From a virus (lineage: Duplodnaviria; Heunggongvirae; Uroviricota; Caudoviricetes), in the IMG/VR virus record IMGVR_UViG_2562617113_000019: DNA of 43,127 bases; one strand, given 5' to 3'. The position numbers were made by a program. Below are positions 24,001-30,000 of this stretch, piece by piece. The number at the start of each line of letters is the position of its first letter. Position 1 is the stretch's first letter.

Positions 24001-27000
24001 GCTGCTGATGCTGTTTTATGCCTTTGCACCACTCCGTCATCTTTATGGTCATCCGTTACCGGCTAACTGGCTGGTGGTGGGTGCCAATCTGCTGTTCTGT
24101 GTGCTGGTGATATGCGCACGCGGAAACGTCTCGAAACTCTTTTCATTACGAAGGCACTGATATGAAGTCGAAAGATGAAATTTTTGACGAAGTTCTGGGA
24201 AAAGAGGGAGGTTACGTTAACCATCCTGATGATAAAGGTGGGCCGACAAAGTGGGGAATTACTGAAAAAGTTGCCAGGGCGCATGGATACCTGGGGGATA
24301 TACGTAACCTGACGCGCGGGCAGGCGCTGGAAATTCTTGAGGCGGACTACTGGTACGGACCACGTTTTGACCAGGTGGCAAACCTGTCTCCGGATATTGC
24401 CGCAGAACTGTGTGATACCGGCGTAAACATGGGGCCGTCGGTAGCATCAAAAATGCTTCAGCGCTGGCTGAATGTGTTTAATCAAAAGGGGACGTTATAT
24501 CCGGATATGGATGTCGATGGTCGTATCGGGCCACGCACCATTAATGCGTTACGCGCCTATCTGTCGAAACGTGGCGGGGATGGCGAACTGGTGATGCTGA
24601 CCGCGCTGAACTGTACCCAGGGCGAACTCTATCTGGAGCTGGCAGAGAAGCGAGAAGCCAACCAGTCATTTGTCTACGGCTGGCTGAAACAACGCGTCAT
24701 TGTATAGCTGGATTTAGATAGATTATAAAAAATCACCTTTAATAATATTTTTTAAATGGATAGGGTGTTGTGAAAAATTAAAATGATTAAGCATGTATTG
24801 TTGTTTTTTGTTTTTATATCATTTTCTGTCTCAGCAAACGATTTCTTTAGAGCAGACTCCAGAACACCAGATGAAATAAGACGTGCGGGAGGGCTTTTAC
24901 CAAGAGGGCAGCAGGAGGCTTATGAGCGCGGAACTCCAATTAACATCAATCTGTATGAGCATGCTCGCGGAACAGTAACGGGGAACACTAGATATAACGA
25001 TGGGTATGTATCTACAACTACAACTTTGAGACAGGCTCATTTAATCGGGCAGAATATACTTGGCAGTTATAATGAATATTACATATATGTAGTTGCACCA
25101 GCACCCAATTTATTTGATGTGAATGGTGTGTTAGGGCGGTATAGTCCATATCCCAGTGAAAATGAATTTGCTGCATTAGGAGGGATTCCCTTATCACAAA
25201 TTATAGGCTGGTATAGAGTATCTTTTGGTGCGATAGAAGGGGGAATGCAGCGAAACAGGCATTACAGAGGAGATTTATTTCAAGGCTTATCGGTTGCCCC
25301 TAATCATGATGGCTATCATCTCGCAGGATTTCCAGAGGGTTTTGCTGCATGGCGAGAGCTGCCATGGAGTGCATTTGCTCCGGAACAGTGCGAGCAAGAT
25401 TACATGGTTAGAAATTTAGATGCCTGCGATTCTTATACAAATATATTATCTCAAAATGATTTGGTCGCTTTTAAAAGATTTATGCGAATTCGTTCTTCTC
25501 TTATGATTTTACAAAGTATTGAGGATGATTTACAAAACAATGAAAATAAAGATGAACTTTAAAAAGTCAATTGCGTTGTTGTTTATTGCCTTAAATATTG
25601 CATCACTACCAACATATGCTGGCGTAAGTAAAACTTTTAAGGATAAATGCGCTTCGACTACGGCAAAACTTGTACAGAGTGTTCAGTTGGTAAATATCTC
25701 GTCTGATGTAAATAAGGACAGTAAGGGAATTTATATATCAAGCTCAGCAGGAAAAACATGGTTTATTCCGGGGGGGCAGTATTACCCTGATAACTATCTA
25801 AGTAATGAAATGAGAAAAATAGCAATGGCTGCAGTTCTTTCTAACGTAAGGGTAAATCTATGTGCGAGTGAAGCATATACTCCGAATCATGTATGGGCAA
25901 TTGAATTGGCACCATAATAGTCATTGGTGTTTTAGTTTTTGTTTCATTCAATTTTATTCTGTATTTGATGTTATTAAGTTTGCCCCGTCCTGAATAACAT
26001 TGACACGTTCCTGATTTAAATCCGGAGAAAACTATGTGGAAACCTACCGGCGACCGAGTGCTCACCGTACTCATTGACAGCAAACCGCAGTATTCACGTA
26101 TTGAAACTAACGGTAAGGACGTTCGTCTGGTTCGCAAGTAACTTGCATTACAGCAGCCCTTCAGCGAGGGGCTGCGATAATGCCAGGCTCACTAACAGCA
26201 CCCGCCGCGCACCCAGCGCACTGGCTGATGGTGAGCTTTTTTATTCATAAAGTGAGGCTGTATGAGCGAGAAATTGAAGATCGTCTATCGCCCGTTACAA
26301 AAACTGTCTCCATATGCGCATAACGCCAGGACCCACAGCCCTGAGCAGGTGGCTCAACTGGTAGAAAGCATTAAGCAATTTGGCTGGACTAATCCAGTGC
26401 TGATTGACGAAAAGGGCGAAATTATTGCTGGTCACGGTCGCGTTATGGCGGCTGAAGTGCTCAAAATGGATTCCGTTCCGGTCATTGTTTTGTCTGGCCT
26501 GAAGGAGGATCAGAAAAAGGCGTATCGCCTGGCAGATAATCGTCTGCCGCTTAACGCTGGCTGGGATGAAGAGCTGTTACGGATGGAACTTTCAGAGTTA
26601 ATCAATGCTGATTTTGATATCTCCCTGACAGGATTCAGCCCAACAGAAATTGACGAACTGTTGATGGAAGTTTTGCCGGGCACCGGAACTGAGGAGGAGC
26701 CGTACACGACGAAAATTGATACGCCTGTTTATGAGCCGTCAGGCGATAAACCGGATATCGGCGAACTGTACGACGATACGAAAACTCAGGAGCTGGTCAG
26801 CCGGATACGTTCGGCGTCCCTTGATCCTGATATCGAAAAATTCCTCCTGTGTGCAGCAGAACGTCACACGGTGTTTGATTTCAGCAGAATTGCGGACTAT
26901 TACGTTCACGCCCCCGCTGAAATTCAGCATCTTTTTGAGGAGTCGGCGTTGGTGATCATTGATTATCAGCAGGCCATTGAAAATGGATTTGTCCGGATGA

Positions 27001-30000
27001 CGCAACGCATGGTGGAGATCATGCACGGCGGGGAGGAGGAATATGCGTGATGATTTTTGCGCCTTTATTCTGACTCACGGGCGACCGGACAAAGTTCTGA
27101 CTTACCGGACATTACGTCGAGCTGGCTATACCGGTAAAATTTTTATCGTCGTTGATGATGAAGATAAAACCCGGCATCAGTACATAGCTGAATTTGGTAA
27201 ACAGGTGTTGGTGTTTTCTAAAGCCGATATCGCCAGTCGTTTTGACGAAGCCGATAATTTCGGTGACCGTCGCTCAATTTTTTACGCACGTAATGCCTGC
27301 TTCGACCTGGCAAAACAGGTCAGGTGTAAATACTTCATTCAGTTCGATGATGATTATCATGAGTTCCAGTTTCGGGTGGATCACAACTATGACCAGGCCT
27401 ATTTTCCGATAAGGAAACTGGACGCAATCCTTTCTGAAATGCTGGCGTATTACGAATCAATTCCTGCGCTTTCCATCGCTATGTCGCAGGGCGGGGATTT
27501 TCTTGGTGACAATGGCGGCCATGCTTCATGGGTGAAACGCAAGGCAATGAACAGCTTTATCTGTTCGGTTGAGCGACCGTTCTCATTCATGGGGCGCATT
27601 AACGAGGATGTGAATACTTACACGAATCTCGGTCGCCGTGGTGAATTGTTTATGACGATTGGTGCTGTCCAGTTGGGACAGAAACAGACGCAGAAAAACA
27701 GCGGCGGAATGACCGAGCTGTATCTGGATTCCGGAACCTACGTTAAAAGTTTTTACTCCGTCATGTATGCGCCCTCGTGCGTAAAAATCTCACTGATGGG
27801 GGCCAGCCATAAACGCATTCACCATCAGGTCACCTGGAACAACGCTGCAGTAAAAATCCTTAACGAAAAATACAGGAAGAAGACACCCTGCATACCAATG
27901 GGGGTGACAAATGATTCCGTATTCGAAAGTCGAGTCTCTGGCTGCGTGCCGGATGACCGCACAACAAATCGCTGATGTTCTGGATGTTGATCTGAACCGA
28001 CTGAAAGAAAATCGGGAAGCAATGACAAATTTTTACGCATCCATCCGTAAGGGCAGAGCGAAAGGTGAAGCCGAGCTACGAGCCGCATTGTTTAAGCTTG
28101 CCAGAAAAGGGGATGCCTTTGCTCTGCGTGAGTTACTCAGGGTGGATAAAAATCAGGACTAACTGATGAACAGACCGGACTGGGGGGCGTTGCAGCAGGA
28201 ATATATTGCTGAATACACCCGTTCCGGTATATCTCCGGTTGCATGGTGTGAAGCAAGGGGACTGAATTACGCAACAGCCCGTCGTTACATCAAAAAACCT
28301 CCGAAAAATGCGCAGACAGAAGTGCGCAAAACTGCGCAAAAAAGTGCGCAGAAAAAATCTGCGCAGACTGCGCAAAAGCGGAACAGAAAATCTCAGAAAA
28401 AAAAGACGGTATCCGATGCCTTCCTGATTAAGAGTGGCGCGGAGGAGATTTCATTCTGTCCCGATGAATTCGGCATTTCTGACCAGCAGGCAAAATTCGC
28501 CATGCTGGTTGCTCAGGGTAAAAAGCCGACAGAGGCATACCGACTGGCCGGTTATGAAGGGCAAGGTGCGACAGCTAACAGCAACGCCAGTCGTATGCTT
28601 AGAAATGCCAGGGTTTTTCGTGCCATCAGCTACTTCCGCAATCAGTACCAGAAACGCTATACCGCAGACCTGGATTTACTGGTGAGTCAGTTGATGGCCA
28701 TTGTTCAGGCCGACCCCAATCAGTTGGCACAATTTCGCCGTGTTAACTGCCGTTATTGCTGGGGCGAGAATCACCTCTACCAGTGGCGCGATATAGCAGA
28801 ATTCGACAAGGCAGCGGCACAGGCCTCCAGAGATGGCAAACCTGAACCTGAATATGGTGGCCTCGGGTTTGTTGATAACGCCATACCCAATTCGGACTGC
28901 CCGAAGTGCTGCGGTGAGGGAACAGGGCAGCTTTATATGGCCGATACCACTCTGCTTGATGGGGATGTACGGCAATTATATGCAGGGGCAAAGCTCGGAA
29001 AATTCGGTGTTGAGATCCTGCAGGAGAATAAAGCTGCCGCCCGGCGTGAATTGTTGCGTTTGCTTTCTGCTGGCGGGGCATTATGTGCAGATAAGCGGCT
29101 ACAGGAACTGGAAATTGAGCGGCGCAGAATGGAAAACCAGAAGCTGCGCAAAGAGATCGAAACGGTGGAGGGTAATGAACATCCCCTGCCTGTGGCGATC
29201 AATATTAATGTAGTTGATGCCAGGGTAAGGAGTGATGAAGATGATCTCTCCGACGCTTAATGTGCCTCAGGCGCGATTTCTTTCCATGCCTCATAAATTT
29301 AAAGCCTATATTGCTGGTTTTGGCTCGGGCAAAACATGGGTGGGGTGTGGCGGCATATGCAAGGGGATTTGGGAGCATCCTGGTATAAATCAGGGATATT
29401 TTGCGCCAACGTATCCCCAAATACGCGATATTTTTTACCCTACAGTGGAAGAAGTTGCTGCTGACTGGGGATTGAACGTAAAAATTAATGAGGGAAATAA
29501 AGAGGTTCATTTTTATTACGGACGCCAGTATCGGGGAACCACCATCTGCAGATCGATGGAGAAGCCGCAAACGATCGTCGGTTTCAAAATTGGTAATGCG
29601 CTGGTGGATGAACTGGACATTTTGCCGAAGGAAAAAGCCAGAACTGCGTGGCGCAAGATAATTGCGCGTATGCGTTATAAGGTTGATGGACTTCGCAACG
29701 GTATTGACGTTACAACCACGCCAGAAGGATTCAAATTTGTCTACGAGCAGTTTGTTAAAGCCGTGCGTGAAAAAACAGAGTTGTCCTCACTGTATGGTCT
29801 GGTGCAGGCATCTACTTTCGATAATGAAAAGAACCTGCCAGCAGATTACATTCCTTCGCTTCTTGAATCATACCCTCCAGAGCTGATTAAAGCCTATCTT
29901 CGTGGACAGTTTACGAACCTGACAAGTGGTACTGTTTACCATCAGTTTGACCGGCAACTGAATAATTGCGAAGAAGTGGAGCAGCCTGGGGAGCCGATTT

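Follow-up and report, generated by a model that had tools for sequence, protein, structure and literature searches.

What does a phage glycosyltransferase act on when its genome encodes no pathway for making the modified bases on which such enzymes are known to work? Known phage DNA glycosylation is the last step after synthesis of 5-hydroxymethylcytosine (5hmC, hmC) or 5-hydroxymethyluracil (5hmU, hmU). The question is raised by a stretch of viral DNA of 43,127 nucleotides (IMG/VR record IMGVR_UViG_2562617113_000019, class Caudoviricetes), whose whole length we call the window. In it, a gene for a ParB-like protein overlaps the gene for a glycosyltransferase just upstream of the terminase genes, and the prophage is without such a pathway. 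We find that the two genes travel together through the viruses of bacteria and archaea and may encode the two subunits of a late-acting DNA glycosyltransferase.

A ParB-like gene overlaps a glycosyltransferase gene

The window is 100% identical to DNA of Escherichia coli NADC1036 (NZ_CP076264.1) and represents a full-length Rac-type lambdoid prophage with LT-II enterotoxin genes and a pertussis-toxin-like toxin. On the plus strand, the antiterminator, toxin and lysis genes are followed by the ParB-like gene (hereafter, the partner), the glycosyltransferase gene, a small open reading frame (ORF) and the terminase genes terS and terL. An earlier note on this DNA had read from the sequence two ORFs across positions 26262-27975, an 8-nt overlap between them and a GGAGGAGGA site, and each of these is present. 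The features of the pair are as follows.

26262..27050, plus strand: ParB-like partner gene, 262 aa, ATG start (ORF; Pfam ParB_N; phrog_620; homologues of 259-263 aa)
26262..26666, plus strand: ParB/Srx (CTPase-fold) N-domain of the partner, residues 1-135 (AlphaFold2 (AF2) model, predicted local distance difference test (pLDDT) 75-93; Foldseek)
26322-26330, 26430-26441 and 26535-26540: nucleotide-pocket motifs of the N-domain, N21-A-R23, G57-H-G-R60 and D92-N93, respectively
26703..26783, plus strand: linker motif of the partner, Y148...K174, in a predicted disordered linker (pLDDT <50; alignments of 38 and 30 sequences)
26772..27026, plus strand: helical C-terminal domain (C-domain) of the partner, residues about 171-255 (homologue alignments; 1181 clusters)
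27032..27040, plus strand: Shine-Dalgarno-like run GGAGGAGGA (direct sequence reading)
27043..27050, plus strand: 8-nt overlap ATGCGTGA, in which the final codons and stop of the partner contain the glycosyltransferase start (ORFs)
27043..27975, plus strand: TAGT-family GT-A glycosyltransferase gene, 310 aa, ATG start (Pfam PF20691, phrog_842, AF2/Foldseek)
27082-27084, 27346-27354 and 27601-27609: glycosyltransferase motifs R14, D102-D103-D104 and N187-E188-D189, respectively

The ATG of the glycosyltransferase at position 27043 precedes the partner's TGA by 8 nt, and the overlapping stop and start codons would couple the translation of partner and enzyme. The GGAGGAGGA run is made of Gly and Glu codons of the partner's acidic tail (GGEEEYA), and purine-rich counterparts are present in several other loci. 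Neither a sigma-70-like promoter nor a terminator emerged from a consensus scan of the plus strand from 25917 to 26262, the interval that separates the pair from the toxin B gene. With no hint that the pair is transcribed on its own, it most likely forms part of the late transcript.

The second gene encodes a predicted GT-A glycosyltransferase of the TAGT family

The earlier note had taken the 310-aa protein for a putative GT-A sugar transferase from its Rossmann-like N-terminal strands and DDD motif (FIQFDDDYHEF, residues 97-107) and had named a match to a non-transferase family as one result that would speak against its reading. Profile and structure searches turned up no such family and instead placed the protein in Pfam PF20691, TAGT (TET-associated glycosyltransferase), a family whose characterised members glycosylate DNA. 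The match (E 4.6e-34, 118.6 bits against a cut-off of 27.5) spans residues 8-222 and positions 4-205 of the 205-position profile, and phrog_842 is matched at E 6e-101. RefSeq names the protein 'GREB1-related protein', and its homologues carry precomputed PF20691 assignments.

Residues R14, D102-D103-D104 and N187-E188-D189 are invariant in 35 homologues, and V190 follows E188-D189. R14, the DDD at 102-104 and the ED at 188-189 are the counterparts of the R...DDD...ED[Y/F] motifs that bioRxiv 10.1101/2023.12.21.572611 defines for the active site of phage GT-A DNA glycosyltransferases. Residues 1-150 of the AF2 model mostly have pLDDT >85 (the model is poor beyond), and the Foldseek matches in the PDB (E 2e-4 to 5e-3) are all nucleotide-sugar GT-A-type enzymes, mostly glycosyltransferases (SunS, COLGALT1, SpsA and glycogenin) and a few sugar nucleotidyltransferases. 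Judged by sequence motifs and predicted fold, the protein is a GT-A glycosyltransferase with a DXD-type motif. It is basic, with an isoelectric point (pI) of 8.8, and is free of membrane-like segments. Sequence searching of the PDB yielded chance matches only (E about 1), NCBIfam contained no significant match and no PADLOC defence-system model matched.

The last 25 or so residues of the enzyme (window 27900-27975) are an extension of the Escherichia clade that is missing from the homologues of other genera. This extension overlaps the small ORF that follows by 23-65 nt, according to the start chosen for that ORF.

The partner joins a ParB-like domain to a conserved linker motif and C-terminal domain

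That the first protein is ParB-like, as had also been proposed, is borne out by profile and structure matches. The 27.6-bit hit to Pfam ParB_N barely clears the cut-off of 26.3, and the TIGR00180 score is 35.8 bits against a cut-off of 58.45; phrog_620 is matched at E 2e-86, and Foldseek aligns the N-domain with Noc, ParB, PadC and KorB (E 8.5e-7 to 1e-4). Phage adenine methyltransferases begin with a homologous domain (phrog_498, E 6e-51, 30-50% identity), and the only PADLOC match is to the ParB-like N-terminus of the MTase_II model (E 2.9e-37).

Canonical ParB/Noc/KorB CTPase clamps have the same N-domain fold and share with the partner the box II arginine and box III asparagine, which are invariant here as R60 and N93. 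The partner keeps the phosphate-contacting positions, and that it binds nucleotide is plausible from its sequence. Its pocket motifs read NAR for QPR, GHGR for GERR (the two stand opposite each other in a profile alignment to Noc) and DN for EN, with N21 and H58 at the positions of the hydrolysis residues Q and E, so that the residues with which canonical ParB hydrolyses cytidine triphosphate (CTP) are replaced. Unlike the canonical proteins, the partner is acidic as a whole (pI 4.6, net charge -23) and has no helix-turn-helix (HTH) in the AF2 model or the Pfam scan. No parA is annotated in the fetched part of the prophage, and a search for parS-like repeats returned none that was convincing, the sole array lying inside terS. 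Canonical plasmid partition was rejected on these three grounds.

The remainder of the protein is conserved in a different manner. Although the linker is modelled at pLDDT <50, the residues of its motif, Y148-T/S-x-K151-I-x-x-P155-x-Y157-x-P159 ... P164 ... L169-Y170 ... K174, are invariant or nearly so in 38 homologues, and most positions are at least 90% conserved among 30 sequences that span many phyla and include those of an archaeal virus and a Vibrio jumbo phage. The C-domain carries the signature stretches FLLxAAERHTVFxF, IADYY, SALVIIDY and AIENGF, followed by the acidic tail. No Pfam family covers this motif and C-domain half, and AF2 confidence in the C-domain is too low for a fold search there to be meaningful.

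Searched against 1.84 billion representatives, the motif and C-domain together returned 1181 clusters, in which the C-domain is almost always C-terminal in a protein of 250-300 aa and sometimes stands by itself. The 195-kb Vibrio phage VB_VaC_SRILMA (PP083314.1) encodes, just 5' of its TAGT, a 139-aa 'hypothetical protein' (5459-5878) that matches the linker motif and C-domain only and is without a ParB domain. P0328, a 534-aa metagenomic protein, is a natural fusion of both proteins in reversed order, with a divergent TAGT (residues 5-193) followed by a ParB N-domain (about 270-400) and then the motif, in the form Y-T-x-x-I-x-x-P-x-Y-x-P, and C-domain (405-511). The constant companion of this TAGT clade is thus the motif with the C-domain, and sequence comparison indicates that the ParB N-domain is a usual but dispensable addition to it.

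RefSeq marks just the first 258 nt of the partner gene (NZ_CP076264.1 1517198-1517455), as a pseudogene called 'ynaK, missing C-terminus'. The ORF is in fact uninterrupted, and its alignment with a 262-aa homologue is gap-free (97% identity); by this comparison the label is an annotation artefact, which arises because YnaK of E. coli K-12 (87 aa) is itself an N-terminal stump of the partner gene. The Rac prophage of K-12 MG1655 (NC_000913.3 1425377-1425980) reads rzoR-trkG-ynaK-ydaY and then passes through a deletion to a tape-measure fragment, an arrangement in which K-12 Rac has lost the partner's C-domain, the glycosyltransferase and the head genes by deletion after ynaK-ydaY. Literature searches for 'ynaK' gave irrelevant word matches only, among the matches listed. 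In K-12 Rac, trkG fills the cargo slot that the LT-II genes hold in the window.

Proteins of 196-200 aa that consist of a ParB N-domain alone, 60-64% identical to the N-domain of the window, are encoded at the left genome end of Yersinia phage vB_YpM_41 (415-1005) and Vibrio phage vB_VpaM_XM1 (153-755), with neither a glycosyltransferase nor a methyltransferase. The gene that follows is annotated as the terminase small subunit in XM1, and unannotated hypothetical proteins follow in vB_YpM_41.

The pair recurs across viruses of bacteria and archaea

We identified homologues of the enzyme at 49-96% identity in Enterobacterales, Bacteroidota, Firmicutes, Chlorobi, Desulfovibrionaceae, Saccharibacteria, Verrucomicrobia and others, and at 38-46% identity in cultured Lactobacillus and Nocardia phages and the haloarchaeal virus HHTV-2. 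TAGT sequences from viruses that infect Proteobacteria, Bacteroidota, Firmicutes, Saccharibacteria and a haloarchaeon share 40-58% identity. Directly 5' of the TAGT, each of the 30 metagenomic and genomic loci encodes a homologue of the whole partner, and a ParB-like gene occupies this position in Lactobacillus phage phi jlb1 and HHTV-2 too. Among 32 loci, which represent several bacterial phyla and one archaeal virus, 28 have an enzyme start that overlaps the partner stop, the overlap being 4-20 nt long and, in 25 of them, either 8 or 11 nt, so the arrangement is not a matter of chance.

All-against-all clustering of the neighbouring proteins showed that just the partner and the enzyme are common to the loci, with no third conserved gene beside them. 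Where loci were long enough to reveal downstream genes, those 3' of the pair usually encode terminases, of unrelated types (GpA, TerL, Terminase_3 and Terminase_6), and the portals and capsids differ. The pair of Vibrio phage VB_VaC_SRILMA lies among replication genes (helicase, primase and exonuclease) and not beside a terminase.

This pattern bears on whether the two genes are related at all. They might be unrelated neighbours, a partition ParB or packaging accessory next to a cargo glycosyltransferase for surface (O-antigen or teichoic-acid) modification: records call the first gene 'partitioning protein', the Yersinia and Vibrio phages described above carry ParB N-domain genes without a glycosyltransferase, and TarP-like prophage GT-A enzymes modify teichoic acid. 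The strict pairing, the conserved start/stop overlap and the single-chain fusion largely refute this explanation, as does the lack of an HTH, a parA in the fetched part of the prophage and parS-type repeats. O-antigen conversion was rejected since the enzyme has no membrane segments and the prophage no GtrA/GtrB-type genes. Surface polymers moreover differ among Gram-negative, Gram-positive and haloarchaeal hosts, yet the enzymes are 40-58% identical, and we regard unrelated neighbours as very improbable.

Within E. coli, the pair is present (coverage at least 80%) in 866 of 5426 complete genomes. A scan of viral contigs returned near-identical E. coli relatives only and served for the ratio of nonsynonymous to synonymous substitution (dN/dS), not for diversity. 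Measured against the window in 80 E. coli-type loci, dN/dS is 0.12 for each gene; the enzyme ORF is intact in 78 of these loci and the partner ORF in at least 66. Such purifying selection already contradicts the proposal, to which we assign almost no probability, that the pair is a decaying, non-functional remnant of a larger TET/JBP-glycosyltransferase hypermodification cluster. That proposal would accord with the absence of a dioxygenase from the window and with the existence of truncated copies, namely ynaK of K-12 Rac and the split genes in Shigella and Bacteroides xylanisolvens loci. The pseudogene remnant was rejected on the strength of dN/dS, the intact ORFs and catalytic residues that are invariant across phyla; the two-gene unit, besides, recurs in unrelated phage backbones.

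Relation to known DNA modification systems

The closest parallels to the partner come from proteins that assist other DNA-modifying enzymes. ParB-like proteins without a DNA-binding domain are needed by their cognate phage thymine dioxygenases on double-stranded DNA (PMC13229309). These 5mYOX/ParB pairs (O'Toole et al. 2026, PMC13229309) resemble the present pair in that the ParB-like protein has the same architecture, a nucleotide-binding domain, a disordered linker and a C-domain with no DNA-binding domain, and in that it is encoded beside a post-replicative DNA-modifying enzyme, in phage clusters often near terminase genes. They differ in the enzyme, which is an iron/2-oxoglutarate (Fe/2OG) dioxygenase there and a glycosyltransferase here.

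A homologous N-domain also occurs in ParB_N-DNA methyltransferase fusions, which are enriched in prophages (PMC12704722); several such genes lie at the start of a phage record, the usual site of packaging genes. Unlike in these fusions, the catalytic module here is separate, a translationally coupled glycosyltransferase served by a dedicated C-domain, and is not an S-adenosylmethionine (SAM) methyltransferase, from which it differs in chemistry and acceptor. PMC8256090 attributes to Iyer, Aravind and colleagues the proposal that ParB directs modification enzymes to DNA during packaging, and cites Iyer et al. 2013 as having already noted the ParB-TAGT association computationally.

The glycosyltransferase itself invites comparison with the T2/T6 beta-glucosyl-HMC-alpha-glucosyltransferase and with metavirome 5hmC glycosyltransferases, with which it shares the TAGT profile, the GT-A fold, the R...DDD...ED residues, solubility and a phage origin. 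It is just 22-26% identical to T4-like and Porphyromonas phage TAGTs (22-25% for T4-like Aeromonas phage members), and T2/T6 are absent from the tblastn matches in the phage collection at E 1e-3. Unlike the T2/T6 system, the present one has a ParB-like partner at every locus and neither hmC synthesis nor an alpha- or beta-glucosyltransferase in the prophage. Phage GT-A DNA glycosyltransferases are structurally closest to the trypanosome base J glucosyltransferase (JGT), which requires 5hmU from JBP; the window has no gene for such an enzyme.

RefSeq applies the name 'beta-glucosyl-HMC-alpha-glucosyltransferase' to members of the clade in NC_024206.1, NC_021340.1, NC_019449.1 and other records of phages and an archaeal virus. 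The stretches of about 13 kb inspected in those records are without any annotated hmC-related gene. To our knowledge, none of the viruses so named carries hmC. The lack of an hmC pathway, the low identity and the ParB-like partner leave the name unjustified for this clade; it is carried over from the PHROG family label and is probably wrong.

One locus resembles a DNA hypermodification cluster more closely. In a Hyphomonadaceae metagenome-assembled genome (2614-6161), the gene after the partner encodes a 564-aa protein in which a TAGT is joined to a C-terminal class-I SAM methyltransferase domain, and a second TAGT gene comes next. By analogy with the stepwise building of glycans in DNA hypermodification clusters, this arrangement suggests a methylated glycan of two sugars.

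A proposed late two-subunit DNA glycosyltransferase and its acceptor

TAGTs that are 40-58% identical over Gram-negative, Gram-positive and archaeal hosts call for an acceptor common to all of them. Both DNA and the co-conserved partner would qualify. The TAGTs that have been characterised act on DNA, and the 'solitary TAGTs' of 288 of 753 phage genomes are called undefined (PMC13216743). The T2/T6 TAGT adds a second glucose to glucosyl-hmC, and metavirome TAGT enzymes glycosylate 5hmC made by a methyltransferase/TET pair. Further links to DNA are the homology of the partner's N-domain to the N-termini of phage DNA methyltransferases and the basic character of the enzyme. The DNA precedent of the family, the ParB-like activators of other enzymes, the common acceptor and the Hyphomonadaceae locus lead us to favour, at about even confidence, a late DNA glycosyltransferase of two subunits, with the partner holding or completing the enzyme and linking it to DNA.

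In this scheme, the two genes would form one unit that is expressed late and adds sugar to phage DNA while it is being packaged or shortly beforehand. Catalysis would fall to the 310-aa protein, as a metal-dependent GT-A enzyme of the TAGT family with a host nucleotide-sugar as donor. The 262-aa partner would be obligatory; its linker motif and helical C-domain would bind or complete this enzyme, with the two proteins presumably binding each other. The ParB/Srx N-domain, a module that phages also fuse to DNA methyltransferases and that recalls the ParB-like proteins serving thymine dioxygenases, would supply nucleotide-gated targeting or activation on double-stranded DNA. With DNA as the putative acceptor, the modification may protect phage DNA from host nucleases.

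Several observations weigh against this scheme, foremost among them the missing source of an acceptor. The 43-kb window contains no gene for TET/JBP, for a thymidylate-synthase-type hydroxymethylase or for a DNA methyltransferase, and the prophage has no hmC pathway, no alpha- or beta-glucosyltransferase and no C5-methyltransferase/TET pair. A Pfam search of pseudo-alignments for 363 neighbour proteins from 19 diverse loci found no TET/JBP or hydroxymethylase among the matches listed, the top 25 families of each scan; the recurrent neighbours among these matches are terminases, portals, capsids, replication genes and a few methyltransferases. Neither 5hmC nor 5hmU, nor a sugar placed on them, thus has an evident source. 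In addition, the partner is strongly acidic and lacks an HTH, and so is not an obvious DNA binder, and its GHGR motif in place of GERR makes CTP hydrolysis of the canonical ParB kind doubtful. The C-terminal halves of both AF2 models, enzyme and partner, are of low confidence. The glycosyltransferase-associated dioxygenases are the ParB-independent ones (PMC13229309), so that a ParB-like protein paired with a glycosyltransferase but no dioxygenase is without experimental precedent. Searches of the literature for the ParB-like/TAGT pair itself found no experimental study.

The earlier note had read the pair, speculatively, as a DNA-modification or anti-restriction module. While the identifications on which it drew hold, that interpretation is only consistent with the TAGT family and, by analogy, with ParB-dependent DNA-modifying enzymes (PMC13229309); the prophage and the 19 loci lack TET/JBP and hydroxymethylase genes among the matches listed.

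In a few loci, genes within 10 kb of the pair encode C5-cytosine (3) or N6/N4 (2) DNA methyltransferases, a PAPS-reductase/DUF3440 protein or PcfJ/PcfK. In the part of the Vibrio jumbo phage that was inspected, a thymidylate synthase gene lies beside one for dihydrofolate reductase and looks like part of ordinary synthesis of deoxythymidine monophosphate.

How might a DNA glycosyltransferase work without such a pathway? The pair could place its sugar straight onto ordinary phage DNA that has been neither methylated nor hydroxylated beforehand, on a canonical base or some other universal feature of DNA. We know of no glycosyltransferase that glycosylates an unmodified DNA base, and we consider direct glycosylation unlikely.

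Alternatively, the enzyme might have the usual 5-hydroxymethyl-pyrimidine specificity and find its substrate in trans, in the DNA of superinfecting hmC or hmU phages or in rare oxidised bases. Precedent within the TAGT family and the abundance of defence genes in the window (AbiH and SIR2) favour this idea, and hypermodification of invading genomes by prophage glycosyltransferases has been raised previously (bioRxiv 10.1101/2023.12.21.572611). The pair itself lies in the late region by the terminase, apart from the defence genes expressed in lysogeny, is present also in a jumbo phage and an archaeal virus, and includes an enzyme with no PADLOC match. For some of the host groups of the pair, we know of no hydroxymethyl-pyrimidine phages. 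A substrate in trans seems distinctly unlikely to us.

The acceptor could also be a protein, one of whose hydroxyl groups would receive the sugar from the TAGT. The simplest assumption is that this protein is the partner, modified at Y148, T/S149 or Y157 in a manner comparable to the self-priming of glycogenin; another candidate is a conserved phage protein of the packaging stage. The disordered motif keeps these three hydroxyl residues across bacteria and archaea, which also counts against DNA as the acceptor, and the partner accompanies the enzyme everywhere and therefore meets the requirement for a universal acceptor. The structural neighbours of the enzyme include GT-A enzymes that glycosylate proteins or peptides, namely SunS, ThuS, COLGALT1 and the self-priming glycogenin. 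The TAGT domain of animal GREB1, too, reportedly O-GlcNAcylates a protein. The absence of an encoded source of a DNA acceptor, both in the window and, among the matches listed, in the 19 loci, points the same way. The hydroxyl-bearing disordered motif and these structural neighbours make protein glycosylation a serious rival. A conserved disordered motif is, however, equally expected of a docking peptide, and the ParB N-domain is otherwise fused to DNA methyltransferases. The pair of the jumbo phage lies among replication genes, characterised phage TAGTs act on DNA, and a second TAGT and a methyltransferase fusion are known from DNA glycan clusters. On balance we hold a protein acceptor to be unlikely, though it is the main rival to DNA.

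Surroundings of the pair in the prophage

The earlier note had placed the pair upstream of the terminase genes, which is where it lies:

27911..28162, plus strand: small ORF between the pair and terS, 83 aa (RefSeq start 27953; phrog_309, E 2.5e-22)
28166..29260, plus strand: terminase small subunit gene, terS (Pfam Terminase_2, phrog_51)
29232..30542, plus strand: terminase large subunit gene, terL (profile matches, RefSeq)

By its match to phrog_309, the small ORF resembles part of a terminase small subunit. Inside terS (window 28291-28370) are four spaced 15-mers of the TGCGCAGA/TGCGCAAA type, 14-22 nt apart. This array coincides with a Lys/Ala/Gln-rich coding part and gives several terminator-like hairpins on the minus strand; it may serve as a pac-type recognition site, or may simply reflect repetitive coding sequence.

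The prophage carries further cargo. A scabin-related ADP-ribosyltransferase with a subtilase-type B subunit is encoded at window 21928-23179, and the LT-II enterotoxin A and B genes (window 24783-25917) lie between the lysis genes and the pair. The two defence genes are an AbiH abortive-infection gene (window 14529-15506) and a SIR2-family gene (17009-18517, minus strand).

Implications for phage biology

The TAGT family and its association with ParB and terminase genes were already known from the literature, Pfam and RefSeq. To this, our analysis adds that the two genes form an autonomous, translationally coupled cassette, that the element of the partner which matters is a motif and C-domain outside known families, and that the pair spans bacterial and archaeal viruses and is common in E. 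coli, where ynaK of K-12 is a remnant of it. The label 'ParB' hides this element, the linker motif and C-domain without a family assignment that travels with the enzyme. Given its purifying selection and constant partner, the pair is among the most conserved non-structural cassettes found in this analysis.

If the pair glycosylates its partner or another protein, it would represent a new kind of phage protein modification tied to packaging. If it modifies DNA, temperate coliphages that are thought to have plain DNA would be sugar-modified, with consequences for restriction, CRISPR, type IV systems, sequencing and phage therapy, and the role of ParB-like activators would extend from dioxygenases to glycosyltransferases. 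If, furthermore, the glycosylation is direct, a chemically new sugar modification would have gone unnoticed in the packaged DNA of many temperate phages, among them the prophages of roughly every sixth complete E. coli genome, the ancestor of K-12 Rac and viruses of Bacteroides, lactobacilli and haloarchaea.

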